Part shown: piece by piece, positions 4,546 to 23,768 of the stretch
How the letters are laid out: each line of letters opens with the position of its first letter
Numbering within the stretch: the first letter of the stretch is position 1
Source: a virus
Lineage: Duplodnaviria > Heunggongvirae > Uroviricota > Caudoviricetes
Reading direction: 5' to 3' (one strand)
Length of the DNA: 23,768 bases
IMG/VR virus record: IMGVR_UViG_2778261225_000015
Notes under the pieces: model-generated
The model's input: the letters and a program-made list of their open reading frames with translations, nothing else
Database searches by the model: none
Told to the model about the DNA's origin: nothing
Program-made: the position numbers and the translations under genes

Positions 4546-4621
4546 ACAAGGAAGGATGCCGCCCGGTGCTCTGGACGGCAATTAATGCGGGTTTTACCAG
4601 ATATGGCACAACATACAAAAA

Positions 4622-5965
4622 CTAGCTTGGGGTAACTGTAACCTGACGAGAAAAAACAACAGGCTCCTTCAATTGCTCACATATAATTTTAAAATTAATA
4701 ACTCCAGAGCCAATCGTTAAGGGAATGATGACTATTTCCTCATACTCAACAGTTAAGCTCTGTAACACTTTTTTCGCACGCAACGTGATTTTATGGTCCT
4801 CTTTCATGACCCACTCATCTTGGTTAACTGTTCCTAAATCAGCCATCCGTTTAATTATTGCTGGCACTTCGAAATGAGGTTTAGCCATTACCATCGATGT
4901 ATCATCAAAAATACCCATCCTAAAATTTTCGAGTGACATTATAGCACTGAGTCTTTTTTTATGCTTACTTATTGGGGACTCAGGGATTTTTAATTTCGGC
5001 TCTTTTATAAATAAGTCTTCATTAGAACCTTTAAGCACTATTAGGAATTCAGGAAAATCAATCTCAACATAAACATTTGACGCAAAAGTCCTCCCATTAT
5101 TTCTTAAAACGGGCTTCACTGTAATTGCATTGTTTTTGTAATTACAGTGCAATCTCATTTTTTTATTATATAAATCCACATCTTTATCAGTAGGCAGTGA
5201 AGAGTTATATGATTCAATCTCATCAATGGTGATAGTGTCCTTCAACTCAAGAGGTACCGCTTCCTTGCATAGTTGTGGAAGGTAATCCTGATAAGTCGAC
5301 TCCACATCCACCGTCAAAGCTAAGTCATTATCAATCATGCTCAGCTCTAATTGAGGTGCATCGCTATGTAATTGGCTTTCATATTCGCGGACTTTTTCCC
5401 TTAATTTTCTATTTTCATTAGATAGCTCAGCCAACTCGGCGGTAATCTCTTTAGATGCGACCTGGTCACCGCGCACCCATCCTATTCGTGGATTTCGTCG
5501 CATTACTTTTGGTAAGGCGATAGCAACCTTCGTCGCTAACTCATCAATTGTCTCCCAAAAATCACACATTTTGTTAGCTTTAGCTTTTTCAATAAAAGCA
5601 TTTAGTTGCTTTTCTTTTTGAGGGTCACTTTCTCGTTCATGTGGTTTTGTTAAAACGTCCCTCCCTCTAATAAAAGCCAACACCGGTATATTTAATGATT
5701 TAGCATAGTTATATTCCATTTCAGTATAGCTAATACCATCTTTAGAAACGGACCCATACTTATGCCCAATGATAATCACATAATAATCACTAGCATCAAT
5801 AGTCTCCTTTATTATATCCCACTGCTCAGAGTCATCAGCGCTAAACATCTCCATGCCAACTGGAAAGTGGTATAAACTAAGGACCGTTTCTATGATTTTT
5901 TTGCGAGCATCAATTAAATCGACGTATGTAGAGCTCACAAATACTTGATATTTTTTATTTTCCAT
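4622..5965 (-). CDS. Cargo protein, 447 aa: N-terminal TIR-like/DUF4062-like domain (KYQVFVSSTYVDL...), central coiled coil, C-terminal domain of unknown function; candidate anti-phage defence or exclusion protein
   Basis: Start ATG at 5965 preceded by GAGGA with 4-nt spacing; AT-rich coding sequence embedded between GC-rich S and V genes; N-terminal motif recalled as typical of DUF4062. Confidence 0.75.
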   Translation of the reverse strand: MENKKYQVFVSSTYVDLIDARKKIIETVLSLYHFPVGMEMFSADDSEQWDIIKETIDASDYYVIIIGHKYGSVSKDGISYTEMEYNYAKSLNIPVLAFIRGRDVLTKPHERESDPQKEKQLNAFIEKAKANKMCDFWETIDELATKVAIALPKVMRRNPRIGWVRGDQVASKEITAELAELSNENRKLREKVREYESQLHSDAPQLELSMIDNDLALTVDVESTYQDYLPQLCKEAVPLELKDTITIDEIESYNSSLPTDKDVDLYNKKMRLHCNYKNNAITVKPVLRNNGRTFASNVYVEIDFPEFLIVLKGSNEDLFIKEPKLKIPESPISKHKKRLSAIMSLENFRMGIFDDTSMVMAKPHFEVPAIIKRMADLGTVNQDEWVMKEDHKITLRAKKVLQSLTVEYEEIVIIPLTIGSGVINFKIICEQLKEPVVFSRQVTVTPS

Positions 5966-6002
5966 AACATCCTCACTTGTATAGAAAATAAAATACATAA
6001 AA

Positions 6003-6470
6003 TCAATCAATAGATCTAGCCGCCTCAGCTAAAGAAACCATAATTATGTCATGAATCATATTTTTTGATTCATGATCAAACCCGATAAGCATTCGGGCGT
6101 CATACTGTACCGGCGCACTGTTTCGCCCAGGCTTATCTTTGAGACCGTACTGATGCACATTCGCCATCCGTTGTACCTTGCCGGTAAATTCCACGACCGC
6201 CGAGTCATTCCCCGCTGTGGCTTTCATAAAGCGACTGGTGCGGAGCTTAGCGAACATTTCCCGCTTAACCCGGCCTGTTTTGGCTTTTACCGGCTGGCGT
6301 TTTCGGGCGGCGTAAGGTGTCCCGTCCGGGGCTTTCTGCATTTTAATCCGGCGCTGTTGACGGGCTCGCAGGGTCTTAGCGATATCTGCGGCCATTCTGC
6401 GACGGGCGGCAGGAGACAGCGCTGCTATCAGCCCCGTGAGCGTATCGTCAAAGGGTTTAAAGTCATTCAT
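6003..6470 (-). CDS. S: Tail completion protein S
   Basis: 155 aa, P2 gpS-like sequence and position; overlaps R by 8 nt. Confidence 0.85.
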   Translation of the reverse strand: MNDFKPFDDTLTGLIAALSPAARRRMAADIAKTLRARQQRRIKMQKAPDGTPYAARKRQPVKAKTGRVKREMFAKLRTSRFMKATAGNDSAVVEFTGKVQRMANVHQYGLKDKPGRNSAPVQYDARMLIGFDHESKNMIHDIIMVSLAEAARSID

Positions 6471-6930
6471 GCAATCGACTCACGAGCTCACCGTTAACAT
6501 ACAGCTCAACTGGCCGGGTAACGGGCTCCGGCGGCTGCGGCTCTTCAGCCTGTTCAACGTGAAGCTTATCCCCCTGTTCTTTAACGATAGTGCGCTCGGT
6601 CAGCATCAGACTGATACTGATATCGACGCTGTCGTTGTCGTTGATATCGGCAAAATAGGTGAATCCCTTTTTACGCCCTTCATCGGTCGTCATAATGTCA
6701 GCCTGATGTATGCGTAGCCACGCCTGAATCGGGACGAGTAACAGCTCGATATCATCCGTGAAATCGGTCACCACCACATTCAGCGTGTACCGGTTCTCAA
6801 ACGACAGCGACGTCGCCAGCGTCGAGGCCAGATTCCCGTTGTCGATAAAGACACGCATCATATCGGGGTTTCGTGCCAGCACCGGCACGGCGTCAGTTAA
6901 GGCTTTTCGCAGACTCTTCGGCTTGTACAT
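6463..6930 (-). CDS. R: Tail completion protein R
   Basis: 155 aa, the same length as P2 gpR; position downstream of the lysis genes. Confidence 0.85.
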   Translation of the reverse strand: MYKPKSLRKALTDAVPVLARNPDMMRVFIDNGNLASTLATSLSFENRYTLNVVVTDFTDDIELLLVPIQAWLRIHQADIMTTDEGRKKGFTYFADINDNDSVDISISLMLTERTIVKEQGDKLHVEQAEEPQPPEPVTRPVELYVNGELVSRLHE

Positions 6931-7183
6931 CGATTTTATCCTGACAGTGTTTTATCGTTCTGACCTGAAGCGCACAGCGCTCGAGGGCGCTTTCGAGCTG
7001 GCGTATATCCGCGCTCAGGTCGCCATTGGTAGTCGGGTCACTTCCCGGCATCGGGCAAAGGCTGACCTTCGGACATGCGTTGTAAACAATCACCGGCGTC
7101 GGCACAGGCGGCGCGCTGGTGCAACCGGCGCACAGCATCAGGTAAATCAGCGCTATACCAGCGGCGAAGCTGTTCATTTTCAT
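6893..7183 (-). CDS. lysC: Outer-membrane spanin lipoprotein (LysC/Rz1-like o-spanin)
   Basis: Start taken at ATG 7183 (MKMNSFAAGIALIYLMLCAGC: signal peptide plus lipobox Cys, then Pro-rich mature part), GAGG 9 nt upstream; starts inside the lysB frame and runs past its stop (overlapped spanin architecture). Confidence 0.65.
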   Translation of the reverse strand: MKMNSFAAGIALIYLMLCAGCTSAPPVPTPVIVYNACPKVSLCPMPGSDPTTNGDLSADIRQLESALERCALQVRTIKHCQDKIDVQAEESAKSLN

Positions 7184-7451
7184 TGAGTAACCTCGTAATG
7201 GTCTGTTCCCGACGCTGTGCCCGCGCTCCGGCATCGATGAGCTCACCGCGCAGTAAGACCTGAGCGGTCTCATTTTCCCCACGGATACGGGAGGCCGTTT
7301 TAAGCTGGCTTTTCAGCATGGTAATCACCGTTTTTTGGTCACCGGCGACTTTATTCGCCCGTTCAAAGGAACGGGTCAGACTGGTGTTTTCGTGGCGCAT
7401 CCAGAGCAGCCCGGCCACGGCCAGCACTAACAACACGACTATCGTTTTCAT
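7038..7451 (-). CDS. lysB: Inner-membrane spanin (LysB/Rz-like i-spanin)
   Basis: N-terminal TM segment (IVVLLVLAVAGLLW) followed by a charged, coiled-coil-prone periplasmic domain; lies immediately downstream of the endolysin. Confidence 0.7.
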   Translation of the reverse strand: MKTIVVLLVLAVAGLLWMRHENTSLTRSFERANKVAGDQKTVITMLKSQLKTASRIRGENETAQVLLRGELIDAGARAQRREQTITRLLNENEQLRRWYSADLPDAVRRLHQRAACADAGDCLQRMSEGQPLPDAGK

Positions 7452-7957
7452 TTCACCCCCTTCAGGCAGTAGGTGCGCTCACGAAAGCGGCGGTTTTCGA
7501 CCCCGGCATTACGCTCACCATTCACAAACACCCAGCGGGTGAGCTGGTCACAGGCCTGCCACCATTGCCGGTGTTTCAGGTGATACACCAGCGTCGAGCG
7601 ACAGGCCGCGCCGGTGCCGACGTTAAAAGCGAAGCTGACCAGCGCGTCATAGACGGCGGGTGGCATGTCCACCGGCACACAGACCGCGAGTCGTTTCTCG
7701 ACGTTCAGCACGTCGGCGACCAGATTCGCGGCGGCTTCCTTCTCGGTGATATCCCGTTTCGGTACCACCCCGGCAGTGTGGCCGATGCCTGACGTCCACA
7801 CACCCGCGCTGCACTGGTAAGGACGCAACCGGCACCCCTCGAGGTCGGCAATCAGCGCGAGCCCTTCCGGCGAGGTGTGAAGCAAACGAAAATCAGGCAC
7901 CAGTGCCGCCAGCGCCAGCACGACGGCCACACTGCAACGTTTAACGAATGAGCCCAC
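7448..7957 (-). CDS. SAR (signal-anchor-release) endolysin, T4-lysozyme/P1 Lyz-like
   Basis: Block LIADLEGCRLRPYQCSAGVWTSGIGHT resembles the P1 Lyz region as recalled; N-terminal weakly hydrophobic anchor KRCSVAVVLALAALV. Start proposed at GTG 7957, 14 nt upstream of the holin stop; the 204-aa ORF to 8062 has no internal ATG and would overlap most of the holin. Confidence 0.75.
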   Translation of the reverse strand: MGSFVKRCSVAVVLALAALVPDFRLLHTSPEGLALIADLEGCRLRPYQCSAGVWTSGIGHTAGVVPKRDITEKEAAANLVADVLNVEKRLAVCVPVDMPPAVYDALVSFAFNVGTGAACRSTLVYHLKHRQWWQACDQLTRWVFVNGERNAGVENRRFRERTYCLKGVK

Positions 7958-8162
7958 GAATAACCCCCTTATCAATCCCCATCGAGACGAGATAGCGGTA
8001 TTTCTTTCGCTGGTACCAGAAGTTAACCAGCGCGGTAAAAATGGCGCAGCTTCCCCCGACATAAAGCGCGAGCCGTTCCGGCGTCTGCGTACCGAAATAC
8101 GCCAGCACCACTGACAGCCAGTAGGTCAGAAAGGTTGTGATTTTATCCACAGTCAGTCCCAT
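7941..8162 (-). CDS. Holin (two predicted TM segments, charged C-terminus)
   Basis: 73 aa with TM segments ITTFLTYWLSVVLAYFG and LALYVGGSCAIFTALVNFWY and a basic tail; located between X and the endolysin as in P2 gene Y. Confidence 0.7.
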   Translation of the reverse strand: MGLTVDKITTFLTYWLSVVLAYFGTQTPERLALYVGGSCAIFTALVNFWYQRKKYRYLVSMGIDKGVIRGLIR

Positions 8163-8356
8163 AAATTCACGGTCTCCGATACCGGTGCGGTGTCAACTTC
8201 AGGCAGACTGACCGCCGTGCCATGTGGCAGGACGACGCCCAGCTCGGCGAGTCCCGGATTAGCCAGCAATACCGCCTCGACCACACCTTCAGTGCGCCCG
8301 TAATGGCGCTGACATAACGTGTCGAGCGTGTCGCCCTGATGCGCGAAGATGTTCAT
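8153..8356 (-). CDS. X: Tail protein X
   Basis: 67 aa, the same length and position as P2 gpX. Confidence 0.8.
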   Translation of the reverse strand: MNIFAHQGDTLDTLCQRHYGRTEGVVEAVLLANPGLAELGVVLPHGTAVSLPEVDTAPVSETVNLWD

Positions 8357-8856: not shown

Positions 8857-8953
8857 GAGTACCTCAGTAAATAGGTGGGCGGTGGACGCCGGTCGCAGTT
8901 ACGGTGAATCACCGACATTGACCAGCGTGCCGCCCGGCGCGGGGCGCGTTCTG

Positions 8954-11980: not shown

Positions 11981-13750
11981 ATGACCACTACAACCGACAC
12001 ATCACTACTCAACGATCCGCGACGACAGGCCGCGCTTTTGTTCTGGCAGGGCTATTCCGTGCCACAAATCGCGGAACAGTTGCAGGTCAAGCGCCCCACG
12101 GTGCAGAGCTGGAAGCAGCGCGATAAATGGGAAAAAACCGCACCGTTAAACCGGGTCGAGTTCACGCTCGAGGCTCGGCTGATTCAGCTCTATGCAAAGC
12201 CTGACCTGACGGCTCATGACTTTAAGGTCGCGGATTTTCTGGCGCGCCAGATGGAACGCCTCGCGCGGGTCAGTCGTTACGGTCAGACAGGTAACGCAGC
12301 GGATTTAAACCCGAACGTGGCCAACCGCAACAAAGGGGAAAAGAAGAAGCCGAAAAAGAACTTTTTCAGCGAAGAGGCTATCGACAAGCTCGAAGAGATT
12401 TTCCTCGACCAGTCTTTCGACTATCAGCTCGAGTGGTGGCGCGCGGGGCTGGCGCACCGTATCAGGCACATCCTGAAATCACGACAGATTGGAGCGACAT
12501 TCTACTTTGCGCGAGAGGCGCTGTTACAGGCGCTGAAGACCGGCCACAACCAGATATTTTTATCGGCCAGTAAGACACAGGCCTATGTATTTCGAAAATA
12601 CATCATCGCCTTTGCCCGACTGGCTGGCGTCGAGCTCACCGGCGACCCGATTGTGCTCGGCAACAATGGCGCGGAGCTGATGTTTCTCGGCACCAATGCC
12701 AACACGGCGCAGAGCCACAACGGCGACCTGTATGTCGATGAAATTTTCTGGATCCCCAACTTCCAGAAGCTGAAGCGCGTTGCCGGTGGCATGTCTTCAC
12801 AGGAGCATTTGCGCACGACCTATTTTTCGACCCCCTCATCGCTGGCGCACGGTGCCTATCCGTTCTGGTCGGGTGAGCAGTTCAACAAGGGACGCTCAGA
12901 CAAGAGCGAGCGCGTCGATATCGATATCAGTCACGCAGCACTCGCGAAGGGTGTCGCTTGCCCGGACGGCCAGTGGCGGCAGATTGTCACCATCGAGGAC
13001 GCACTCGCTAAAGGGTGCACACTGTTTAACATCGACACGCTGAAGCGCGAGAACAGCGTCGATGAGTTCCGTAATCTGTTTATGTGCGAGTTCGTCGACG
13101 ATAAAGCGTCGGTATTCCCGTTCGAAGAGCTGCAACGCTGCATGGTCGACAGCCTCGAGAAATGGGAGGACTACACGCCATTTGCCGACCGGCCTTTCGG
13201 TCACCGCCCGGTGTGGATTGGTTACGACCCGTCATTACGCGGCGACAGCGCCGGGTGCGTCGTCATCGCGCCGCCAGTCGTCGCCGGTGGACGATTCCGA
13301 ATCCTCGAGCGCCATCAGTGGAAAGGGATGGATTTTGCTCAACAGGCCGAATCCATTCGCGAGCTCACGCAGAAATATACCGTCGAATACATCGGCATCG
13401 ATGCGACCGGGCTCGGACAGGGCGTTTTCCAGTTAGTGCGCTCATTCTACCCGGCAGCGCGTGAAATCCGCTACACGCCGGAAATGAAAACCGCAATGGT
13501 GCTGAAAGCCAAAGACACCATTCGCCGCGGTTGCCTCGAGTACGACGTCAGCGCGACCGATATCACGCAGTCGTTTATGTCTATCCGCAAAACCATGACC
13601 AGCAGCGGGCGCAGCTCGACCTATGAGGCCAGCCGCACCGAGGAAGCCAGTCACGCCGATCTCGCGTGGGCAACCATGCACGTATTAATCAATGAGCCGC
13701 TGACCGCCGCGACCGGCGAACAGTCATCCAGTATTATGGAGTGGAACTAA
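11981..13750 (+). CDS. P: Terminase ATPase (large) subunit P
   Basis: Start taken at ATG 11981 with GAGG 4 nt upstream (the ORF-track start 11957 is a GTG); P2 gpP-like over its whole length; stop TAA overlaps the Q start (TAATG). Confidence 0.9.
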   Translation: MTTTTDTSLLNDPRRQAALLFWQGYSVPQIAEQLQVKRPTVQSWKQRDKWEKTAPLNRVEFTLEARLIQLYAKPDLTAHDFKVADFLARQMERLARVSRYGQTGNAADLNPNVANRNKGEKKKPKKNFFSEEAIDKLEEIFLDQSFDYQLEWWRAGLAHRIRHILKSRQIGATFYFAREALLQALKTGHNQIFLSASKTQAYVFRKYIIAFARLAGVELTGDPIVLGNNGAELMFLGTNANTAQSHNGDLYVDEIFWIPNFQKLKRVAGGMSSQEHLRTTYFSTPSSLAHGAYPFWSGEQFNKGRSDKSERVDIDISHAALAKGVACPDGQWRQIVTIEDALAKGCTLFNIDTLKRENSVDEFRNLFMCEFVDDKASVFPFEELQRCMVDSLEKWEDYTPFADRPFGHRPVWIGYDPSLRGDSAGCVVIAPPVVAGGRFRILERHQWKGMDFAQQAESIRELTQKYTVEYIGIDATGLGQGVFQLVRSFYPAAREIRYTPEMKTAMVLKAKDTIRRGCLEYDVSATDITQSFMSIRKTMTSSGRSSTYEASRTEEASHADLAWATMHVLINEPLTAATGEQSSSIMEWN

Positions 13751-14778
13751 TGAGCAAGAATCGCAACAACAAGCGACAGCAGCCGCGCCCCCAAAGTCAC
13801 ACCGCCGCATCGGCACAGAGCATGGAGGCATTCACCTTTGGCGAGCCGACGCCGGTACTCGATCGCCGCGACATTCTCGATTATGTGGAGTGCATCGACA
13901 ACGGCCAATGGTATGAGCCGCCGGTGAGCTTCTCCGGGCTGGCGAAGAGCATGCGCGCCGCCGTTCATCACAGCTCACCGATTTACGTGAAGCGTAATAT
14001 TCTGGTGTCGACCTACATCCCGCACCCGCTGTTATCGCGTCAGGATTTCAGCCGGTTCGTGCTCGATTATCTGGTATTTGGCAACGCCTTTCTCGAAGAG
14101 CGTCGCGGTCTGACTGGCAAGCCGCTAAAGCTGGAGACCTCACCGGCCAAATATACCCGTCGTGGCGTTGATGATGACGTGTACTGGTATATCCAGTCCT
14201 ACACGCAACCGCACCAGTTTTCGCCCGGTTCCGTCTTCCACCTGCTTGAGCCTGATATTAATCAGGAGCTGTACGGGATGCCGGAATACCTGAGCGCACT
14301 CAATTCAGCCTGGCTGAATGAGTCAGCGACACTGTTTCGTCGCAAGTATTACCAGAACGGCGCGCACGCAGGGTACATCATGTATGTGACCGATGCCGCT
14401 CAGAACAGCACTGACGTCGAAGCGTTGCGAAAGGCGATGCGCGACTCGAAAGGGCTCGGCAATTTTAAGAATCTGTTTTTCTACGCACCGCACGGTAAAC
14501 CGGATGGGATTAAAATTGTGCCGCTGAGCGAAGTCGCGACGAAGGATGATTTTTTTAATATCAAGAAAGTCAGCGCCGCTGACCTGCTCGACGCGCACCG
14601 CATCCCGTTCCAGTTGATGGGCGGCAAGCCTGAGAACGTCGGCTCAGTGGGCGATATTGAGAAAGTGGCAAAAGTATTTGTTCGCAATGAATTAACTCCA
14701 TTGCAAGATAGGATTCGTGAATTAAATCATTGGTTTGGTGATAATTTAATTAAGTTCAAGCCGTATACCTTTGATTAA
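13750..14778 (+). CDS. Q: Portal (capsid portal vertex) protein Q
   Basis: P2 gpQ-like, about 343 aa from ATG 13750 (MSKNRNNKRQQ...), GGAG upstream; the GTG at 13741 is an alternative start. Confidence 0.9.
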   Translation: MSKNRNNKRQQPRPQSHTAASAQSMEAFTFGEPTPVLDRRDILDYVECIDNGQWYEPPVSFSGLAKSMRAAVHHSSPIYVKRNILVSTYIPHPLLSRQDFSRFVLDYLVFGNAFLEERRGLTGKPLKLETSPAKYTRRGVDDDVYWYIQSYTQPHQFSPGSVFHLLEPDINQELYGMPEYLSALNSAWLNESATLFRRKYYQNGAHAGYIMYVTDAAQNSTDVEALRKAMRDSKGLGNFKNLFFYAPHGKPDGIKIVPLSEVATKDDFFNIKKVSAADLLDAHRIPFQLMGGKPENVGSVGDIEKVAKVFVRNELTPLQDRIRELNHWFGDNLIKFKPYTFD

Positions 14779-14794
14779 GTATGAATGCAAAAAA

Positions 14795-14824
14795 TCCAGA
14801 GTCCATTATAATAATGACTCTGGA
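14795..14824. terminator. Hairpin between convergent portal gene and cargo operon; likely rho-independent terminator for the minus-strand operon, possibly bidirectional
   Basis: Perfect 9-bp stem TCCAGAGTC / GACTCTGGA (14795..14803 and 14816..14824) with a 12-nt AT-rich loop; on the minus strand it is followed directly by a T6 run (complement of AAAAAA 14789..14794). Confidence 0.5.
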
Positions 14825-14834
14825 TGAAAATGTT

Positions 14835-15521
14835 TTATTGCTTATCTTGTGGTGGTGGAACCTCTTTTTCTAAATTATCTACATACTCTCTAATATTGAA
14901 TGCTTTGTTTTTCCTTATTTCGGTAGTGTTAACCTTACTAACACCATCACGAATGTTTTTATTTATGGTGTCTATTAATTTTTGTCTTTCTTGTTCTGTT
15001 TTTATTATTTCACTTAAGAATGACTTTGCGTTTCTTGAAATGTCCGTCTGTCTATTAATGAATAGTATCGCATACACTGAAAAAACCAAGCAAGTAGTCG
15101 TTAGTGCGGAATTAAAAAATACCCCATAATAAACATTAACTTTTGTTATTGACGCTGATAACGTTAGTGATATCAAAAAAAACAAAATCAGGGTAAAAAT
15201 ATATGCAATGGTTACTTTGTTTTTAGTGGTGTCAAGAATGTATGAAGTTCTTTGATCATCAAAGTAATCCTTTATCCTTGATGGAGTGTTTGCGGGGAGT
15301 TCTAACTCCTTTATTTTATCATCAGCATCAATTAGTCGCTTAAACATGAGGCTAATGATTACGGCGCTAAAGACAGAGATCCCCTTTGAAATTATAGGAT
15401 CGAAATCAATTAAAAATGAGTATTTTGAATAAACAAAAACAATAACAAAACCACATATAAGCCCAATTACAATTGAGCTTGCTATGTTTTTTGCATATGT
15501 TTGTAACGTATTGTTTATCAT
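14835..15521 (-). CDS. Integral membrane protein, 228 aa, four predicted TM helices (2 + loop + 2) with cytoplasmic charged tail; second gene of a two-gene cargo operon
   Basis: Hydrophobic segments near residues 13-31, 47-60, 114-135 and 141-165; ATGA start/stop overlap with the upstream gene; AT-rich. Confidence 0.7.
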   Translation of the reverse strand: MINNTLQTYAKNIASSIVIGLICGFVIVFVYSKYSFLIDFDPIISKGISVFSAVIISLMFKRLIDADDKIKELELPANTPSRIKDYFDDQRTSYILDTTKNKVTIAYIFTLILFFLISLTLSASITKVNVYYGVFFNSALTTTCLVFSVYAILFINRQTDISRNAKSFLSEIIKTEQERQKLIDTINKNIRDGVSKVNTTEIRKNKAFNIREYVDNLEKEVPPPQDKQ

Positions 15522-16501
15522 GGGTTAATTACTCCGGTGTCTAGTAAGCGCAATAACCATGAAATCATTTCTTCAGCAACGTTGTCAGCAATTAGCATTC
15601 CATTGCTGTATTCAATATTAACTGAATCCTTTAGTTGAATCTCATCATTCCTGAGTATTCCTGCACCTTTTAACTCAATTGTTAAGCTTTCATCTCTATT
15701 ATCAACCAAGCCTTGTGTAATTTTACGCAACATGTCTTGCTCAGACTCGCTTGCTTTATATTTATACCCAATGGAAATATCAATTGATAGAGATTCCCTG
15801 TCAGGTGAACCATCATTTAAAATGGTATTTTTCTTCATTTCATTAATTCGATGTTCACCTACGAGCGTTTTTAATAGCTCACTAGCTGTATCATCAATAT
15901 TATTTCCATAGTAGGTTAAAGGCAGCTTTAAGCTAACATTTTTTACTATGTTACGTTTTAAAAAATCCGTATTTAGAGACAGGTTGTTTGCCTGTAAAAC
16001 GATGAAGTTATCATCAGTAATAGATAGGTTGTCTTGTAGTATGAAATTTATATAATTTTCAATATCTTTTATTCTAATAGATCTGCTTTGCAGAATTATG
16101 AAGTGGTTCTTAATCACACCAATGTATGCAATGCTTTCTAAATACTCTCTAGCATTCCCACTTGATAAATTTAATGTCTCGTATGTTAAAGCTGTTTTAG
16201 CATAATCGCTAACAGAGAAAACAGGAATGCTACTACCCGGTTCAATATAGACAATTTCCGCAAAAAACATTCCATGAATTTCTTTGCTATTTGAAAGAAC
16301 CATGTGGGCGTGAGCAGCGACATTACCATTATTATCTGGAACATCAGGGAAGAATAATCTATCAGCAACATTTGGAACCTTGATTTTCACAAGGTTTGCC
16401 AACCTATCTTGCAGGTTTGATGTTAAAAGAGCATCCTTTTTAGGAAGCATTATTGCATGGCGATAATGCAGCATTTTACTCTTATAATCTTGCGTTGCCA
16501 T
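15518..16501 (-). CDS. Uncharacterised soluble protein, 327 aa; first gene of a two-gene cargo operon at the portal/cos hotspot
   Basis: ATG 16501 preceded by AGAGGGA; no Walker A, HxH or GxSxG motif seen by eye; AT-rich codon usage unlike the phage backbone. Confidence 0.75.
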   Translation of the reverse strand: MATQDYKSKMLHYRHAIMLPKKDALLTSNLQDRLANLVKIKVPNVADRLFFPDVPDNNGNVAAHAHMVLSNSKEIHGMFFAEIVYIEPGSSIPVFSVSDYAKTALTYETLNLSSGNAREYLESIAYIGVIKNHFIILQSRSIRIKDIENYINFILQDNLSITDDNFIVLQANNLSLNTDFLKRNIVKNVSLKLPLTYYGNNIDDTASELLKTLVGEHRINEMKKNTILNDGSPDRESLSIDISIGYKYKASESEQDMLRKITQGLVDNRDESLTIELKGAGILRNDEIQLKDSVNIEYSNGMLIADNVAEEMISWLLRLLDTGVINP

Positions 16502-16572
16502 AGAATCCCTCTTGCTATGAATATGTTATACACGGAGCGAAGCAATTATGTATTGTATTGCTCTGGCGCGCA

Positions 16573-16591
16573 ATGCTATCCCCGCCACGCC
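16573..16591. other. Putative cos site (19-nt cohesive-end sequence of a 186-like phage)
   Basis: ATGCTATCCCCGCCACGCC; its reverse complement GGCGTGGCGGGGATAGCAT differs at one position from the phage 186 cohesive end as I recall it (GGCGTGGCGGGGAAAGCAT; P2 is GGCGAGGCGGGGAAAGCAC). Confidence 0.55.
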
Positions 16592-16872
16592 TGCCCGCTT
16601 TATGGGGCGGTTTTAATGCAGTTGCATGACCACTCTGGATACGCGCCAGCTGTGGCGGCACACGGCTAGAACGTGCAACCCATGTCGCATGCAAAATCAT
16701 GCGCCTGATGCATGCACAGCTAAAAAACGGGAAATTCGTGGAAAAATGGCATAAAAAACGACTTTGAAAGTGCCGGCCATGGTCAGATTTTCAAGGGCAG
16801 GCTAACGCCTCGCGCGGCTCGTTGTTCAAACCCGCTGACGCCAAAATCTAGTTTTTGCATCAGCGCGTTTAC

Positions 16873-17055
16873 CTATTCAGCCTTATAGAAAATTTCGTCT
16901 TTTTCTTCGTCGCTTTCGCTGTTAGCTAGGCCGGCAATTAGAGTTAGTGCCAGCTTCAAATCTGCCGGTTTGCAGTTGGCAATAAGAGATATCTCGGCGA
17001 TAAATTGCACACAAGCCCACTTTTGCTGCGTTCGGCTGAAATGTTTCCCAACCAT
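16873..17055 (-). CDS. Small SOS-regulated protein, 60 aa, acidic C-terminus; candidate Tum-like antirepressor (function inferred from position and regulation only)
   Basis: ATG 17055 preceded by GGGAGGG with 5-nt spacing; consensus LexA box 21 bp upstream; lies between replication gene A and cos, where 186 carries its SOS-inducible tum gene. Confidence 0.55.
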   Translation of the reverse strand: MVGKHFSRTQQKWACVQFIAEISLIANCKPADLKLALTLIAGLANSESDEEKDEIFYKAE

Positions 17056-17095: not shown

Positions 17096-17244
17096 TAACG
17101 TATTGGCAAAAGATGGGAAGAGAAAAAGTGAATCGGGTAGGTGTTGTATGTACATGATATGGATGTAAATTAATCACCTGTGAGTTTTGATGTTTCTGCC
17201 AGCACCGCAACACGATTAAGGATTTCCCTAGGCTTTGCCTGAAG

Positions 17245-19392
17245 CTATGGCGCTGCGGAGAAAATTTCACCTTTGGACGTTCCACGCAACCATTTACCGT
17301 TAATACAACTTTTGCCACCTGCTATCAGGTGCAGGGCTTCTCCCCGGCTGATGGTAATGCCGGTTGTCAGACGGATCTCGTCGATAGTTTTTTCTATCGG
17401 AGCACTTTGCTCATCTGTTCCGTGGATAAATTTCGGCCTCTTAGGTGGCTTTGGTTTCCTGATTCGGTTCGTCAGCTCTCGCCTTTCACGTCGACTCAGG
17501 GGTTTTGATAAATCGAGTTCCGGTGGATCGCTTTCGCTTCCCGTACAGTTATTGACAGAACTCCAAGGGACGGCGAAGCCGTCCTTAACGTCAACGGCCA
17601 AATCAACGGCACGCTTCGGAACAATTTTCCATTGCGTGAGCCGGGTTAAAATCGGAGTGCCAACACCAACGGTGGAGTCGTACACACCACGAATGCAGAC
17701 AGTTTCCTCACCATACTGGTTAAACTCGGTGCGCGGTTCATAAAGCGTACGCACCTGCAAATCATCGCGACGGACAAACGGACCGCCCTGCGCATTAACA
17801 TAGCCAGCCCAATCACCGGCATCGGCGGCATCATGGACAGCCGCAAACTCAACACTTAGACCGTGCGCGGTCTCGGTATCTGCAAGGCGACGCAATTCAC
17901 GATAAACAGTCACTGGTGCACCACCGATAAACTGAAACTGACGAATATGCCAGCGCGCCGCCCATGCTGAAACGGCGGGGGCTGTCTCTTTCAACAGTTC
18001 ACCGTTTTCGTCATCGGTTTCGTCATCAAGAGCGTAACCGTCGATATTTTTCGAGATGTATTTCGCGACGTAGCCGGTTGCGCTGCCTTTCTCCGGATCA
18101 ATGGCTTCTGCGTGGAAACGTGCTTTTTTGGCTTTATCGCTTTTGAGTTCGTGAAAATCTTCTTGCCATGCGTAGTCCCGAATAATGCCACGAACGGTAT
18201 CGACGTCCTCCGGGAGCATAAACATCAGCATATGCCAGTGAGGGCACCCGTCATGGTGAGGCTCTGCAACGCGGATCCCGAAAATACGAATGTCTTCACG
18301 GTGGAGTTTTGCGCGAATGCGTGCCCACAGGCCAGTGAGATAACATTGCGTATCGGATGGATTGGATCCATTCCATTTGGTGTTACGGTAGCCTGCCTTT
18401 GTCGTGGCGTGATATTTAGACGGTGCGGTCAGGGTGTAAAACTCACCAACATAACCGAGCTCATTGCAGATATTTTCAAACCCACGAATGCGGGTCATAA
18501 GCTCACAGCGTCGAATCGCAGAGTTAGCGACTGAACCATCGTATTTTTCAATCAGGCTGATACGGTTGCCGTCTTCGTCTTCAAGCTCCAGACCTTTGAG
18601 AAATTCGCGCGTCCGGCGCTTCTGTTCACGCCAGTCTGTCACGCAGTTTTTACTCGCGTAGACATGTTTTTTCTTACTGACATTTCCGATTGCGATTTGC
18701 AGGTGTTCGCGCCACGCAGCCGCAATGCGACGCAGACGGCCACGCCACCATTTTTCCGAAAACATACGGGCAATTGCTGGAGCGACTTTATCCTGATCCC
18801 AATATTTATCCCGCGACCGTTCCCACTCTGGTGGCATTATCCTGAATTGCTGAGTGATGAAACCAGCATGCATATACCAGGCATTTAATGTCTCCAGTTC
18901 ACACATGTCAGAATCGTCAATGTTGACTAACTCTGCACGGATAAAATCGGCGATATCAGCAGCCAGCAGGTCGATGTCGGCGCGTGCCATATCCGGGAGT
19001 CGGTTGTATCTGGCGACTATGTTGACCATGCGAGACGCCAGATATTGCATAAGCTGAGTATCGAAATGACAACCGAAAACAGCGGCTGATACGTTGCTGT
19101 TAATACCGGTACACTCGTATTTTTTTGCGACCAGTTCAAAACGCGGCAATGCCTTTTTGCAGAAGCTTATTAAAAAAGCATTGGCTCGTTGACTGCCCTG
19201 ATTTTGCTCCAGCACCGCAGCAGTGCGATAAACGTCAAAACGTACACACTCGGGCTGGAGGGAAAGCACCTTTCTAGCATGCAGCAAAGCCGCGAGCATA
19301 CGGTCGCGGCGATACTGTTGGTCGTAGGTAAGATATGGACTGGCTATTGCCGACCGTGGAGCATTCCACGGAAACGCGAATTGAACAGCCAA
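17245..19392 (-). CDS. A: Replication initiation protein A (rolling-circle replication endonuclease, P2/186 gpA family)
   Basis: 715 aa, gpA-like size and position; the first codon is TTG at 19392 with GGGGGA 7 nt upstream, directly after the stop of the upstream zinc-finger gene; no in-frame ATG near the 5' end. Confidence 0.85.
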   Translation of the reverse strand: MAVQFAFPWNAPRSAIASPYLTYDQQYRRDRMLAALLHARKVLSLQPECVRFDVYRTAAVLEQNQGSQRANAFLISFCKKALPRFELVAKKYECTGINSNVSAAVFGCHFDTQLMQYLASRMVNIVARYNRLPDMARADIDLLAADIADFIRAELVNIDDSDMCELETLNAWYMHAGFITQQFRIMPPEWERSRDKYWDQDKVAPAIARMFSEKWWRGRLRRIAAAWREHLQIAIGNVSKKKHVYASKNCVTDWREQKRRTREFLKGLELEDEDGNRISLIEKYDGSVANSAIRRCELMTRIRGFENICNELGYVGEFYTLTAPSKYHATTKAGYRNTKWNGSNPSDTQCYLTGLWARIRAKLHREDIRIFGIRVAEPHHDGCPHWHMLMFMLPEDVDTVRGIIRDYAWQEDFHELKSDKAKKARFHAEAIDPEKGSATGYVAKYISKNIDGYALDDETDDENGELLKETAPAVSAWAARWHIRQFQFIGGAPVTVYRELRRLADTETAHGLSVEFAAVHDAADAGDWAGYVNAQGGPFVRRDDLQVRTLYEPRTEFNQYGEETVCIRGVYDSTVGVGTPILTRLTQWKIVPKRAVDLAVDVKDGFAVPWSSVNNCTGSESDPPELDLSKPLSRRERRELTNRIRKPKPPKRPKFIHGTDEQSAPIEKTIDEIRLTTGITISRGEALHLIAGGKSCINGKWLRGTSKGEIFSAAP

Positions 19393-19615: not shown

Positions 19616-19842
19616 TAGTGCAACTCCTGAGATTCGTTTTCAAAGCGGGTGGCTTCACGGCGCAGCAGTTCAGCGGCTTCTTTGCCGTTCATGCCTTCTT
19701 TGGTTATATGGATAGCCAGCGCCTCAAGACGGATTGAAACGGCGAGTGCACGGTCTTTGCGTTCTTCTTTTTTGGCATCTGTCAGCAGCACGGCCAGCGC
19801 GTCACTATCAGTATTAAAACTACGGGGTTCGGTATTGCGCAT
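19615..19842 (-). CDS. Hypothetical early-region protein, 75 aa
   Basis: ATG 19842 preceded by AGGAGA; start/stop overlap with the downstream zinc-finger gene. Confidence 0.6.
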   Translation of the reverse strand: MRNTEPRSFNTDSDALAVLLTDAKKEERKDRALAVSIRLEALAIHITKEGMNGKEAAELLRREATRFENESQELH

Positions 19843-19911
19843 AACTAACTCTCCTGATTTCGGGCAATAAAATGCCCGGCGGGTTTACGCCAGATAATTA
19901 ATTGTGATTAA

Positions 19912-20112
19912 TTAGCTATAGCCAAATACAACGGCAGGTTTACTTTTCAACTGGCTGATAATTTCAGCTTTCAGGCCATCCTTAAACTCTTTGCAGCATT
20001 CCCACTCAGGGTCAACCCGAAGTATTGCACCGTCGCGAGTTTTAATTTCAAAACCGTCTTCCATATTCGGAATCATGGCTCCTAAAACAATTCTTAATTC
20101 ATCGCGTGACAT
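19912..20112 (-). CDS. Hypothetical early-region protein, about 66 aa
   Basis: Start taken at internal ATG 20112 (MSRDELRIVLG...) with AAGGGA upstream; the ORF-track start at 20151 would overlap the neighbouring ORF. Confidence 0.5.
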   Translation of the reverse strand: MSRDELRIVLGAMIPNMEDGFEIKTRDGAILRVDPEWECCKEFKDGLKAEIISQLKSKPAVVFGYS

Positions 20113-20359
20113 GTTTAATCCCTTTAATAATAAAGTGGACAATACGAACAATTAAAAAGCCTGACGACTTCGGCGGCTTTGTTTCCAGCCCTTTTAATAA
20201 TTCGGACTGTGAGCAGCACGGATGCCAGCGCCTGCCATCTTTCCCCGCAATCCAGCCGTGACCGTAATGCATGCCGGGACTTTGCTTAACGAGCAGAGAA
20301 GCGAATGAAGGTTCATTTTTCAGCACAGGTACCTCATACCAAACCGAATGTTGCGCCAA
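20099..20359 (-). CDS. Hypothetical small protein downstream of cII (at the position of 186 fil/dhr); start uncertain
   Basis: ORF begins with TTG at 20359 inside the cII 3' end; alternative ATG at 20272 has a weak RBS. Low confidence that it is expressed as annotated. Confidence 0.25.
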   Translation of the reverse strand: MAQHSVWYEVPVLKNEPSFASLLVKQSPGMHYGHGWIAGKDGRRWHPCCSQSELLKGLETKPPKSSGFLIVRIVHFIIKGIKHVTR

Positions 20360-20843
20360 TGCCGGTCATGGTGTCGACGACGCTCGACATTGCCGGGTTA
20401 GCCTGGAGGCGAGCCTGTAACGCCAGCGCCGACAATGACAGCATGCGAATACCGGCGTTAACGCTTTCAACCATGTTGTGTTTACGAGCAGAGGTCAGGC
20501 GTTCATCAGATGCAGCACCGTTCGCCAGTTCGCCGAGTTCGCTCATTGCGCGCATGACATAGGACTGCAATTTATCTTTAGCCAACTCATTAACCGGCAC
20601 ACAAGGTAGACAATGGATCTGCGCCAGAAAGCCATCAACGAGGGTTGAGTCTTCGGTCAGATCAGTCAGCAGCCATAACTCAGGCGGTGTGAACTGGTGA
20701 GGCTGTTCCGGGTTAAGTTTGTTACGTAACGTCTGAACATTCATACCCGCATGCTCGGCCAGCTTCGCCATATTGTGACGCTGCGCGAAAGCCCGGCACG
20801 CTTCGTCATAGTGGGGATGTTTGGAAATTTGAAAATCAAACAT
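20334..20843 (-). CDS. cII: CII-type lysogeny-establishment transcriptional activator (phage 186 CII-like)
   Basis: 169 aa, the length I recall for 186 CII; N-terminus MFDFQISKHPHYDEACRAFAQRHNMAKLAE matches 186 CII as recalled; GAGGG upstream of ATG 20843. Confidence 0.85.
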   Translation of the reverse strand: MFDFQISKHPHYDEACRAFAQRHNMAKLAEHAGMNVQTLRNKLNPEQPHQFTPPELWLLTDLTEDSTLVDGFLAQIHCLPCVPVNELAKDKLQSYVMRAMSELGELANGAASDERLTSARKHNMVESVNAGIRMLSLSALALQARLQANPAMSSVVDTMTGIGATFGLV

Positions 20844-20878
20844 GTATTTTCCCTCGCTATCTTAAATAATCGAGTTTC

Positions 20879-21103
20879 TTAGGCTGCCACATAGCGGCAA
20901 TTAAGGCCCTGAGCCAAGAGTCGAGCACGGAAGGCAACCATATTGATACGCGCAGCACCACCGTCTTTTTTACGGGGCATCAGGAGGAGATCTCCATCAG
21001 CAACCATCTGTTTTACAGTGCGAATGCTGTAGCCGTAGCATTCAGCAAATTCGTCATAAGTCATGAGATCCGCGCCGGACGGGATTGCAATTTGTGGAGT
21101 CAT
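20879..21103 (-). CDS. apl: Apl/Cox-like excisionase and switch repressor (small HTH protein)
   Basis: 74 aa, first gene of the lytic transcript divergent from cI; HTH-like segment MTYDEFAECYGYSIRTVKQMVADG. Confidence 0.7.
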   Translation of the reverse strand: MTPQIAIPSGADLMTYDEFAECYGYSIRTVKQMVADGDLLLMPRKKDGGAARINMVAFRARLLAQGLNCRYVAA

Positions 21104-21189
21104 AAGTAATCATCTCCGGTTACTAGTTGGTTTGGTGCATTGGCGTGCATTTTTAAATTCAAGCGAGAATCTTATCTCGAAAAAGCGAG
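21104..21189. promoter_or_regulatory. Lysis/lysogeny switch region between apl and cI (promoters and operators)
   Basis: 86-bp gap between divergent apl and cI with direct repeats AAGCGAGA (21161..21168 and 21183..21190), a near-palindrome CGAGAATCTTATCTCG (21164..21179) and GTGCAT repeats (21135..21150). Confidence 0.5.
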
Positions 21190-21807
21190 ATGTCAATTTG
21201 GATTTTCGCGATAACTCGGATTTTTAAGATGAAATTGGATGAGTTAGAGGGTGGAAAAGCAGTGCTGCAGCGCATCCTTGATGCGTATGGCTTCACCATG
21301 CAAAAACAACTCGGTGACTTGCATGAGCTGTCATCGGGAACAATCAGCACTTGGGTTCGGCGTAATTTTTTCCCCGGGGATGTTGTTGTTGCATGCGCTT
21401 TGGACACTGGGGTGTCTTTACGTTGGTTGGCAACAGGGAAGGGGAACAAGTTTGATGCAGACCATACTAATGGCGAAATGAAAACATTAGACCGATTGGA
21501 TATTGTTGCAGGTAAGCTGCAGGAAAACGGTCATTGGATTGTTGATGCTAACCTCTTTTCTACTGAGGCGACGCACCCCAATTACATAGTAAAAGGCCAG
21601 CAGTCCTGGATAGTTGATTTTGATATGACTGATATAGCAAATGGGCGATGGATGCTCAGTATCGACGGGGATCATGATGTCTATGACGTTGCAAGGATCC
21701 CGGGGAACAGAATAAAAGTCAGCAACGCTGATGCCGATTTTCAATGCTCAGTTTCTGAGGTTAAGTGTATTGGCATGGTGCTGGTAAGCCTGACGAAATC
21801 TAGCTAA
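21190..21807 (+). CDS. cI: CI-type immunity repressor
   Basis: HTH-containing N-terminal domain (LQRILDAYGFTMQKQLGDLHELSSGTISTWV) plus C-terminal oligomerisation domain; immediately upstream of int on the same strand as in 186. Alternative start ATG 21229. Confidence 0.8.
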   Translation: MSIWIFAITRIFKMKLDELEGGKAVLQRILDAYGFTMQKQLGDLHELSSGTISTWVRRNFFPGDVVVACALDTGVSLRWLATGKGNKFDADHTNGEMKTLDRLDIVAGKLQENGHWIVDANLFSTEATHPNYIVKGQQSWIVDFDMTDIANGRWMLSIDGDHDVYDVARIPGNRIKVSNADADFQCSVSEVKCIGMVLVSLTKSS

Positions 21808-21811
21808 CGAT

Positions 21812-22849
21812 ATGAGTGTTAAAAAACTGACATCGGGTGAATGGCTTTGTGATTTCCGCGTCGACGGGGCTGAAAGTCGCCGCGTGCGTAAGAAGTTTTC
21901 AACCAAAGGTGAAGCCGTTGCCTTCGAGCAGTATTACCGAGAAGAGGCACAAAATAAGCCGTGGATGGGTGAGAAGGAAGACCGTCGACGTTTGAGTGAA
22001 CTGATTGAGCTGTGGCATAACCTCCATGGCCAGTCGCTCGCTGCCAGCAAATCGCGATTGGCCAAACTGCACATTGTTTGCCGGGGTCTTGGCGACCCAA
22101 TCGCTACCCAGCTTACCGCCAAAGATTTCGCCCATTATCGGGATAAACGTCTCAAGGGTGAAATCGACAATGGCTATCACGCAAATTCTGAAAAGTGGAT
22201 TGCGAAACCTGTGACTGTGAACCGGGAACAACAGTACCTCGAAGCTGTTTTCAATGAGCTGAAGCGCTTGGGTGAGTGGAGTCTGCCAAATCCTCTCGAA
22301 GGTGTGCGAGTTTTCAAAGAAGCCGAAAAAGAAATGTCTTGGCTTACCCAGCCTCAAATTCGCGAAGTGCTCAATGCTTGTGAGTCATACGGGAAAATTT
22401 ATTTAACCCGTATCGTCAAAGTGTGCTTAGCGACTGGTGCTCGATGGAGCGAGGCCGAGCGTCTTACTCGTTCACAGCTTTCACCCCACAAGTTGACTTT
22501 CACTAAAACGAAGGGAAAGAAGAATCGTACAGTACCGATCCCTCGGTGGCTATATGACGAGTTGGCTCCTTTACAGGGAAAAATGTTCCACCCCTGCTAT
22601 CAGGAGTTCAAGAAAATGCTCGCTCTGACCGATATAGAGTTAGCTGAAGGGCAAAAAACGCATGTGTTACGTCATACATTTGCGAGTCACTTTATGATGA
22701 ATGGTGGGAACATTTTAGTACTGCAACGAATCTTGGGCCATTCTAACATTAGGGAAACCATGAGATACGCTCATTTTGCACCAGATCATTTAGAAGAAGC
22801 TGTAACTCTTAACCCTATTTCTAATTTAACAGGATTATATGATGAGTGA
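21812..22849 (+). CDS. int: Tyrosine-recombinase integrase
   Basis: 345 aa; C-terminal catalytic block HVLRHTFASHFMMNGGNILVLQRILGHSNIRETMRYAHF (R..H-x-x-R...Y signature). Confidence 0.9.
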   Translation: MSVKKLTSGEWLCDFRVDGAESRRVRKKFSTKGEAVAFEQYYREEAQNKPWMGEKEDRRRLSELIELWHNLHGQSLAASKSRLAKLHIVCRGLGDPIATQLTAKDFAHYRDKRLKGEIDNGYHANSEKWIAKPVTVNREQQYLEAVFNELKRLGEWSLPNPLEGVRVFKEAEKEMSWLTQPQIREVLNACESYGKIYLTRIVKVCLATGARWSEAERLTRSQLSPHKLTFTKTKGKKNRTVPIPRWLYDELAPLQGKMFHPCYQEFKKMLALTDIELAEGQKTHVLRHTFASHFMMNGGNILVLQRILGHSNIRETMRYAHFAPDHLEEAVTLNPISNLTGLYDE

Positions 22850-23768
22850 GCCAACCATCGAAACACCTCCAAGAATGACCGAGGCCAAAGTCATTAGGGT
22901 ACGCACTCGTGGTTTTTATAATTTAGTTGAGATAGGTGCAGTCTTTCTAGTTGCAAATGTAATTTTTGCTACAGGGATATTAGACTCAACCTTTTATTAT
23001 TTATTTCCCAGTGCGAGAGCAGATCTTACACATTTGCCGAGCTTTATCAGGTCAATATTCGCAGTGTCATTTGTAATCGTTTACACCATTATCTATGGTG
23101 TGTCTCCAATCCAAAGAATGTTTATGAGAATTACAGGGAGTGATTCAGTCGACAAATCATCGATGTTTAATATTGTCGATATTATAAATGAGATAAAACT
23201 ACTCAAGAAGGCTCAAGAGGAAAGGGCTGCTGCTGATGAAGATGAATCTCTGGATTTTTATCTTAAAGGTTTGATTAATAGCTCTGAAGGTCTTGCGAAA
23301 AACATATATTCTCGCGGTAGTCTTTATTTATTAGTCGGTGTTTGTTTTGCAATAGTTGGATTAGGTTTCTTCTATTCTCAATCACATGTAATTGATGCTA
23401 AGGATGATGCGGTAACCAAGGTAATGTATCTTCTCCCTAATTTTGGCGTGTTGATTTTCTTGGAGTTAATCGCATTTTTCTTTTTGAAGCAATATCGGGT
23501 TACGATGGATGAGTTTCGCTATTACGAGGCAATAAAACGTTCACGTGAGGAAAGCTATGCCATTATAAAGCTTGTAATGGCTAGCCAGAAAGATATCGAT
23601 ATGATAGACCTTCTGGATAAAATTAATTTTAGCTCAAGAGTTGGAAAACTAGAATCAGGGCAGACTACTGAAATTATTGAAGCAAGAAAATTAGACAAAA
23701 ATGAACTTGAAACCTTAGTAAAGCTTACCGAGGCAGTTGCGGGTAAGATTGGACAGGGAAATAAGTAG
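22839..23768 (+). CDS. Integral membrane protein, 309 aa, four predicted TM helices with cytoplasmic loop and tail; cargo gene downstream of int
   Basis: AGGA upstream of tandem ATGs at 22839/22842; overlaps the int stop by 11 nt; AT-rich; stop codon is the last three bases of the window. Confidence 0.7.
   Translation: MMSEPTIETPPRMTEAKVIRVRTRGFYNLVEIGAVFLVANVIFATGILDSTFYYLFPSARADLTHLPSFIRSIFAVSFVIVYTIIYGVSPIQRMFMRITGSDSVDKSSMFNIVDIINEIKLLKKAQEERAAADEDESLDFYLKGLINSSEGLAKNIYSRGSLYLLVGVCFAIVGLGFFYSQSHVIDAKDDAVTKVMYLLPNFGVLIFLELIAFFFLKQYRVTMDEFRYYEAIKRSREESYAIIKLVMASQKDIDMIDLLDKINFSSRVGKLESGQTTEIIEARKLDKNELETLVKLTEAVAGKIGQGNK

Follow-up and report, generated by a model that had tools for sequence, protein, structure and literature searches.

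Three characteristic moron regions have been described in P2-like phages: the 'orf30 region' between genes S and V, the Z/fun region between G and FI, and the tin/old (TO) region between A and cos (PMC3091744, PMC6823313). The gpA-gpQ hotspot, whose published definition already covers both sides of cos, is the subject of Rousset et al. 2022 (PMC9122126). In 2026 a survey that took in 1511 dereplicated P2-like prophages placed defence hotspots downstream of gpL (16% of systems), between int and primase (8%) and between int and att (3%), with systems in several hotspots in 10% of the defence-carrying P2 prophages (PMC13586616), and a 2024 preprint described a third hotspot between a tail protein and CI (10.1101/2024.10.15.618418). 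Here we analyse a stretch of viral DNA of 23,768 nucleotides (nt), hereafter the window (IMG/VR record IMGVR_UViG_2778261225_000015; Caudoviricetes), which sequence comparison identifies as most of a 32.6-kilobase (kb) 186-like prophage of the P2 family, integrated in the 3' end of rplS in Escherichia coli. It carries separately acquired AT-rich moron cargo at three hotspots that, like the occupation of several hotspots by one defence-carrying P2 prophage, are already documented, and we consider it likely that this cargo gives the lysogen protection from other phages.

Two groups of described defence systems bear on this cargo. Two 2026 preprints define DUF4062 (renamed NIR) as a TIR-like NADase, that is an NAD+-hydrolysing enzyme, in anti-phage defence, and the DUF4062 proteins tested so far are defence NADases; an E. 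coli protein (UniParc UPI0002A39D72) is among those that Osinski et al. tested. In Swarozyc (KpSwz) the phage portal, bound to the C-terminal AUX domain, activates the enzyme and NAD+ is depleted; Vulcan, Vesta and Avs-NIR are DUF4062/NIR systems with other sensors. In a Pseudomonas putida prophage a RexA-fold protein paired with a protein of four transmembrane (TM) helices is a validated defence system (PMC12894663). RexAB shuts out T4 rII-type phages by depolarising the membrane.

A 186-like prophage with AT-rich islands at three conserved junctions

The assignment of the window to the 186-like P2-family phages derives from Pfam domains, comparison with phage records and exact matches in complete genomes. 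The prophage has the same backbone order as P2 and the same insertion points S/V and A/Q; it differs from P2 in that its backbone is 186-like, with a CI repressor bearing the 186-type C-terminal domain (Phage_CI_C), cII, fil and dhr, alongside gpA. The head and tail genes run from the Q-P/O-N-M-L head block through S, V, W, J, I and H. Copies of the prophage sequence, 99.8-100% identical, occur in 13 of 5426 complete E. coli genomes, and these same 13 hold all three islands together at ~100% identity; a Salmonella host, which the neighbouring yfiB, aroF and pheA genes might have suggested, is thereby ruled out. E. coli FORC 064 has a full-length copy between rplS and yfiB (locus L015; window position = L015 position minus 11931), and the uninterrupted rplS-yfiB junction of strain K-12 is the corresponding empty site. 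Comparison of this lysogen with the empty site located the att core as the 14-nt rplS 3' end, AGCGYCTTAACTAA, at L015 3251 and 35813, which gives an element of 32.6 kb. In the lysogen the native rplS 3' end, AGCGTCTTAACTAA, together with K-12 downstream sequence, is repeated 114 nt past the stop of the last gene of the window, which encodes a protein of 309 amino acids (aa); attR is therefore just beyond the window, its core ~114 nt after the last window base. The rplS gene of the lysogen terminates in phage-derived sequence, followed by a new terminator.

A first-pass annotation, made by eye from the sequence, had described three AT-rich segments with shifted codon usage at the junctions S-V, Q-cos and int-att. 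The computed guanine-plus-cytosine (GC) content, GC content at third codon positions (GC3) and codon adaptation agree with this, and the junctions had been labelled correctly, to judge from the positions of gpS and gpV, of Q and the cos 18-mer, and of the int stop and the att core. The coordinates given for the segments are those of open reading frames (ORFs), namely a DUF4062 gene (4622-5965), a two-gene cassette (14835-16501) and the 309-aa gene (22839-23768); the islands as such have GC 0.365 (4582-6002), 0.33 (14779-16520) and 0.37 (22850-23768). The GC and codon-adaptation plots are far from uniform. Sliding windows of 400 nt within the three islands (n=30) have a mean GC of 0.347 (range 0.30-0.415), and those wholly outside them (n=184) a mean of 0.539 (standard deviation 0.052, minimum 0.405), two distributions that scarcely overlap. 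The island genes (GC 0.31-0.37, GC3 0.28-0.35, codon adaptation to the pooled backbone 0.54-0.60) are likewise set apart from the backbone genes (0.42-0.63, 0.39-0.74 and 0.63-0.84 respectively). The accompanying description of the structural and replication genes as GC-rich needs correcting, the early, replication and lysogeny genes having a GC of only 0.42-0.55. Weaker dips at the tail-fibre/assembly genes (~600-1400, GC 0.41-0.48) and at dhr (~19912-20112, GC 0.42) are backbone genes, not islands.

Following the comparison that the first-pass annotation had proposed, we collected the corresponding gene-neighborhoods of related phages. Among viral contigs, 74 relatives have both S and V; of these, 11 are empty at this site (35-72 nt) and 63 are occupied (723-4538 nt), with cargo falling into 48 protein clusters in 33 arrangements. 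All occupied S-V gaps have GC 0.32-0.39, against 0.55-0.63 in their flanks, regardless of gene content (loci L018-L097); because every one of them is AT-rich whatever its genes, AT-richness is a general trait of the S-V cargo pool and not the mark of a single donor. The commonest cargo is the DUF4062 gene (11 loci), and others code for an AAA_21/AAA_15 ATPase or an AAA-TIR protein, domains typical of defence genes. The Q-A interval, surveyed in 75 relatives, spans 1.06-6.19 kb and holds 93 cargo clusters in 65 arrangements, the cassette of the window recurring only in a copy of the same phage. Among 33 informative relatives with a similar integrase, 22 are empty at int-att (att core 110-170 nt after int) and 11 carry ~1 kb of varied AT-rich cargo, with the core at +1026 to +1304 where the contig reaches; five of the latter encode members of the 309-aa family (40-100% identity) and the others ORFs of 240-437 aa outside it. 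A sister prophage in E. coli A15, at tRNA-Ile, shares S, R and the DUF4062 gene (99.6% identity) but not the integrase, and its cargo at Q-A, int-att and ogr-att is different.

Conserved flanks with variable or empty inserts at all three sites therefore support the independent acquisition at permissive sites that the first-pass annotation had suggested, and the same three genes are not conserved across the family. Its further view that only the Q/A locus was a documented hotspot, leaving S-V and the int-distal site as possible additional insertion points, is not supported, both having been described: the window shows the features of the orf30 region (an insert between S and V, with conserved flanks and variable or absent AT-rich content), of the gpA-gpQ hotspot or TO region (variable cargo between A and Q adjoining cos) and of the int-att hotspot (cargo within the element, bounded by the integrase stop and the att core). 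As in the P2 moron regions, where cargo is anti-phage at the TO region, the inserts are AT-rich, non-essential and laterally acquired.

Cargo of the three islands

The island 1 gene begins with an ATG at 5965, giving the 447-aa product annotated in RefSeq (WP_001366609.1); the open frame reaches a TTG at 6010, and an exact-sequence look-up of the resulting 458-aa form returned no record. Residues 18-224 of the product align with the KpSwz chain (PDB: 10wc/11cq/11cv; E 3.5e-46, ~50% identity over 207 residues), and Glu97, in the motif SYTEMEY, aligns with the catalytic Glu (E97) of KpSwz (FTEKAF). The alignment reaches chain residue 209 and so would span the modelled helical stalk, the part that in KpSwz mediates an intertwined dimer. 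The protein resembles Swarozyc and other DUF4062 NADases in its N-terminal TIR-like domain, in the position of the catalytic Glu and in being a single-gene system. It differs in its C-terminal domain, of ~240 aa as against the ~117-aa helix-turn-helix/winged portal-binding AUX domain of KpSwz, a feature of Swarozyc that is absent from it at the sequence level. A search with the C-terminal domain by itself recovered two relatives, one partial and one on the same stalk, neither with a different effector. Relatives found at this site keep 77-84% identity over the N-terminal 205 residues, against 30-39% in the C-terminal half, the pattern expected of a fast-evolving sensor. We interpret the protein as an NADase of the Swarozyc type that has a different sensor; since that putative sensor is unlike the portal-binding domain of KpSwz, its trigger probably differs as well. 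It has neither the HEAT repeats seen in Vulcan nor Vesta's phosphatase partner, and its gene is located among the late genes of a phage rather than in a chromosomal defence island. A phage that itself encodes a portal (Q, 13750-14778) hosts here a relative of a portal-activated NADase, in the late region and on the same strand as S and V.

In the second island the cos site anchors the comparison, as it occupies the same place in 75 of 75 relatives. The Q-to-cos distance is 1798 nt in the window, as against a GC-rich spacer of 175-193 nt in 63 of the 75, which have their cargo between cos and A; it exceeds 400 nt in nine and is ~388 nt in three more. Homology to relatives picks up again ~8 nt from cos, the normal spacer having been wholly replaced. 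Thus, relative to the P2 TO region, the cargo of the window lies on the Q side of cos, as in ~12% of the 75 relatives, and the cos-A side is minimal, its 656 nt being the shortest distance among them.

The 327-aa protein of this island has RexA, an RdgC-like DNA-binding protein of two domains, as the top structural match of its predicted model by two methods. The AlphaFold2 model built from 16 sequences was poor, with a predicted local distance difference test (pLDDT) score of 66, and that from a 59-sequence alignment reached a pLDDT of 86. A profile search of PDB sequences with the family gave no match, fold comparison alone having succeeded; none of its 59 members matches any Pfam family, and a scan of genome contigs with the alignment found no locus. 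As in RexAB, a co-oriented partner gene lies directly downstream, coding for a 228-aa protein with four TM helices called by a simple hydropathy scan; this partner is 26% identical (E 5e-16, 7e-10) to its counterparts in Aeromonas and Vibrio cassettes. Lambda RexB is 144 aa long, so that the island 2 partner, which also bears a charged C-terminal tail, is the longer of the two; and whereas lambda RexAB belongs to an immunity operon, the present pair adjoins cos in a P2-family phage. By predicted fold, TM topology and gene context the pair is RexAB-like, while not being a member of the sequence family. The Kiwa system, composed of the TM protein KwaA and the DUF4868 protein KwaB, was also considered, and neither cassette protein gave a PADLOC or Pfam match to it. 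The Kiwa gene order is reversed relative to the island 2 cassette, with the TM gene upstream.

Homologues of the cassette are found in several genomic contexts: 1) in an Enterobacter P4-like satellite, where it lies between the psu and int genes, which is the canonical P4 psu-int defence hotspot; 2) after a P4-type primase in Aeromonas; 3) in a Vibrio element. More distant relatives lie directly after cI in lambdoid phages, just where lambda has rexAB, and in the two records examined a small membrane-protein gene comes next; one such relative is annotated as 'DefenseFinder protein'. To judge from this distribution the cassette is mobile. Exchange with a P4-like satellite at cos, by recombination or end-joining, may be mentioned as an idea only. 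A 61-aa ORF called in some genomes at 16515-16700 on the minus strand overlaps cos and is unlikely to be a gene; the sole candidate gene between cos and A is a 60-aa ORF called in all copies (16873-17055).

The insert of island 3 is exactly the 309-aa ORF, as empty relatives align to the int 3' end and again straight after the ORF stop; the att core lies here at +1033 nt from the int stop. The overlap of the ORF start with the int stop suggests that the gene is expressed with cI and int in the lysogen. The 309-aa family comprises 117 clusters, for which neither Pfam nor PADLOC gave an above-threshold match; members occupy int-att in other related prophages at rplS, and one homologue lies beside Lamassu genes in a Pseudomonas island. 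Like other cargo of the int-att hotspot in P2-like prophages and phage-inducible chromosomal islands (PMC13586616), the gene lies between the integrase stop and att and would be mobilised with the element; it differs in coding for an uncharacterised four-TM protein unrecognised by PADLOC or Pfam, and in that ogr-att is also occupied. We further recovered att-flanked remnants of 2.1-2.5 kb in Enterobacter hormaechei and Citrobacter (L100 4583-7083; L098 4869-7047; L267 3879-5947) that have lost all phage core genes, the E. hormaechei remnant retaining only the 309-aa homologue and the 240-aa gene that our prophage has between attL and ogr (see below), and the Citrobacter remnants the 309-aa homologue with or without an int fragment. 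As these remnants hold only att-proximal cargo, they suggest that such cargo is retained once the phage has decayed.

At the opposite end of the prophage, beyond the window, lies a fourth AT-rich cargo gene (L015 3470-4192, 240 aa, GC 0.39), between attL and ogr, so that the earlier estimate of up to three accessory systems was too low. Its product has no Pfam match and no TM segment, and the A15 sister prophage has an unrelated 215-aa gene at this position. Relative to P2, the prophage therefore has additional cargo on both sides of att, and in the circular phage form the 309-aa and 240-aa genes flank attP. In the enteropathogenic E. coli E2348/69 assemblies a deleted remnant (L004, LT903847.1, 9175-10930), from which everything from the tail-fibre gene through most of int is gone, keeps a 3' fragment of int and the 309-aa gene directly after the truncated tail-fibre gene.

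Probable anti-phage protection and competing readings

If the cargo is protective, a mechanism may be proposed for each island. By analogy with KpSwz, the N-terminal DUF4062/NIR TIR-like domain of island 1 would be held autoinhibited in an oligomer until the C-terminal sensor binds a protein of the invading phage, whereupon NAD+ would be hydrolysed and the infection aborted. The RexA-fold protein of island 2 may sense phage DNA or replication intermediates and activate its four-TM partner, which would depolarise or permeabilise the membrane and bring about abortive infection. The four-TM protein of island 3, probably co-transcribed with cI and int, would already be present in the lysogen, and is a candidate superinfection-exclusion or abortive-infection membrane effector, an assignment we make with low confidence.

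Several results weigh against such a protective role. PADLOC returned no match above threshold for any island protein (NCBIfam gave sub-threshold noise only), and the 309-aa protein has no informative homologue or domain in Pfam, even at E <= 10, PADLOC or NCBIfam. Neither cassette protein matches Pfam RexA (PF15969) or RexB (PF15968) even at E <= 10, the pair differing from lambda RexAB and P. putida RexABpp in having no detectable sequence similarity to these families, and because of this the Rex assignment rests on predicted fold, TM topology and context. In sequence comparison the alignment of the DUF4062 protein to KpSwz ended at residue 224, with no match between its C-terminal domain and the portal-binding one, and scans for promoters and terminators did no better than on shuffled sequence and so lend no support to independent expression of the islands. 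Moreover, P2 hotspots also hold non-defence cargo, for instance partition systems and toxins, among them a cytolethal distending toxin (Rousset 2022, PMC9122126), and lambda RexA reportedly has a role outside defence, acting on the bistable lysis-lysogeny switch independently of RexB (PMC11077077). The cargo might accordingly consist of lysogenic-conversion or phage-lifestyle genes, with the RexA-fold protein tuning lysis-lysogeny and the membrane proteins altering the envelope or host physiology; the three islands without an above-threshold PADLOC match, and the 309-aa and 240-aa proteins without recognisable domains, would fit this as well. We nevertheless regard a pure lifestyle role as unlikely: the DUF4062 proteins studied to date are defence enzymes, the RexA-fold cassette also sits in the P4 psu-int defence hotspot, a homologue of the 309-aa protein adjoins Lamassu genes, and the DUF4062 protein evolves rapidly in its sensor half, as an arms race predicts.

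The separate acquisition of the islands by the phage has also been set against two readings that would dispense with it. Island 3 could be host chromosome or an older resident islet, the supposed int-att junction being really the prophage end, an impression created by homologues in E. hormaechei and Citrobacter that lie between rplS and yfiB without phage structural genes, and by an exact k-mer search, made first, that found no direct repeats of at least 12 nt between the two prophage ends. The unbroken K-12 junction, which has no such gene, and the duplication of the rplS 3' end past the gene's stop in the lysogen make this very improbable; the Enterobacter and Citrobacter loci are themselves bounded by both att cores and are hence remnants of the element, in relatives sharing this int the core follows it by 110-127 nt where the gene is absent and by ~1.03-1.30 kb where there is cargo, and the ORF start overlaps the int stop. 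Scarcely credible, finally, is an ancestral origin of the AT-rich segments within the lineage, with low GC imposed by functional constraint, as in membrane proteins or H-NS-silenced regions. Two of the four island proteins are indeed membrane proteins, and the three islands occur together in every full prophage copy in complete E. coli genomes; but close relatives are empty, or have unrelated genes, at each junction, the genes for the soluble DUF4062 and RexA-fold proteins are just as AT-rich, at each of the three codon positions, and the same cassettes occur in unrelated elements. We therefore retain the separate acquisition of moron cargo, with anti-phage protection as its likely role.

A bolder extension of this, which we advance as a tentative joint proposal and hold to be somewhat doubtful, is that the 309-aa four-TM protein, possibly with the 240-aa protein, is a prophage-borne determinant of a new type, for anti-phage defence or superinfection exclusion, and of sufficient benefit to the host to persist at the rplS site in Enterobacter and Citrobacter where nothing else of the element is left; and, separately, that the Q side of cos is a distinct sub-site moving RexAB-type cassettes between P2-like phages and satellites of the P4 type via joining at cos.

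P2-like prophages are an established source of anti-phage systems, and this element makes a compact test case, with four cargo loci in one 32.6-kb phage, none of them recognised by PADLOC. Current understanding is unchanged by it, and its value lies in the cargo, which yields concrete candidates for cloning: a sensor-swapped relative of Swarozyc, a RexAB-type cassette on the side of cos that few relatives use, and a pair of uncharacterised genes flanking att. The DUF4062 protein should be useful for understanding how sensor swapping retargets a TIR-like effector, and also poses the question of how a phage copes with such a weapon while it is itself being assembled or induced. The RexAB-type cassette, found in P2, P4-satellite and lambdoid hotspots, is a clean case of cassette shuttling, and the two unannotated att-flanking genes outlast the prophage.

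Feature coordinates, prophage ends and other observations

The features that define the three islands and their flanks are collected in Table 1.

Table 1. Features of the window discussed in the text (positions in nt from the first base of the window)
Feature	Position	Strand	Basis and remarks
gpV baseplate spike gene	3904..4545	-	Pfam Phage_base_V, Phage_spike; RefSeq in L015; conserved flank of island 1
Island 1, AT-rich insert at S-V ('orf30')	4582..6002		GC 0.365; S-V gap 1424 nt as against 35-72 nt in 11 empty relatives
DUF4062/NIR gene, putative TIR-like NADase, 447 aa	4622..5965	-	Pfam DUF4062, full-length, E 1.9e-28
gpS tail completion gene	6003..6470	-	Pfam Phage_tail_S, E 6.6e-34; conserved flank of island 1
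Portal gene Q	13750..14778	+	Pfam Phage_portal; RefSeq annotation; conserved flank of island 2
Island 2, AT-rich insert between Q and cos	14779..16565		GC 0.33; replaces the usual ~185-nt GC-rich spacer
RexB-like partner, 228 aa	14835..15521	-	four predicted TM helices (13-31, 42-60, 103-121, 134-152); charged C-terminal tail
Predicted RexA-fold protein, 327 aa	15518..16501	-	stop overlaps partner start by 4 nt
cos cohesive-end 18-mer, GGCGTGGCGGGGATAGCA	16574..16591	-	one mismatch to P2/186 cos consensus; 0.03 chance matches expected
Replication gene A	17245..19392	-	Pfam Phage_GPA, E 2.4e-128; far flank of the Q-A hotspot
186-type CI repressor	21190..21807	+	Pfam Phage_CI_repr, Phage_CI_C; first gene of the lysogenic operon cI-int-cargo
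Tyrosine integrase targeting the rplS 3' end	21812..22849	+	Pfam Int_N, Phage_integrase; att cores; flank of island 3
Island 3, 309-aa protein with four predicted TM helices	22839..23768	+	GC 0.37; start overlaps int stop by 11 nt

The integration target is the 3' end of a ribosomal protein gene and not a tRNA gene (L015 3251-3264 and 35813-35826; K-12 locus L016 ~3184-3200). The prophage substitutes the last rplS codons, with one synonymous T-to-C change, and gives rplS a new terminator hairpin. An imperfect 22-nt direct repeat (TGTCCA...CAG), TGTCCATAGAGTGTCCACGCAG / TGTCCACAATCTGCCCACACAG, 16 of 22 positions identical, occurs once in each arm flanking the att core (L015 3342-3363 and 35700-35721), its second copy beginning one base past the window end. 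It was entertained as the att core and ruled out by the empty K-12 site, the true core being the rplS 3' end given above; these arm repeats may be arm-type binding sites of the integrase.

Gene A is called a pseudogene with an internal stop by RefSeq in FORC 064 (L015 29101-31323, equivalent to window 17170-19392), and two genomes have shorter A products, of 684 and 674 aa as against 715; some copies of the prophage may have a replication defect. At the position of the P2 Z/fun region the present phage differs from P2 in having alternative tail-fibre segments (C-terminal and assembly) together with a DNA invertase (window 1-405; L015 10877-12336), and the window begins within this invertible host-range region.

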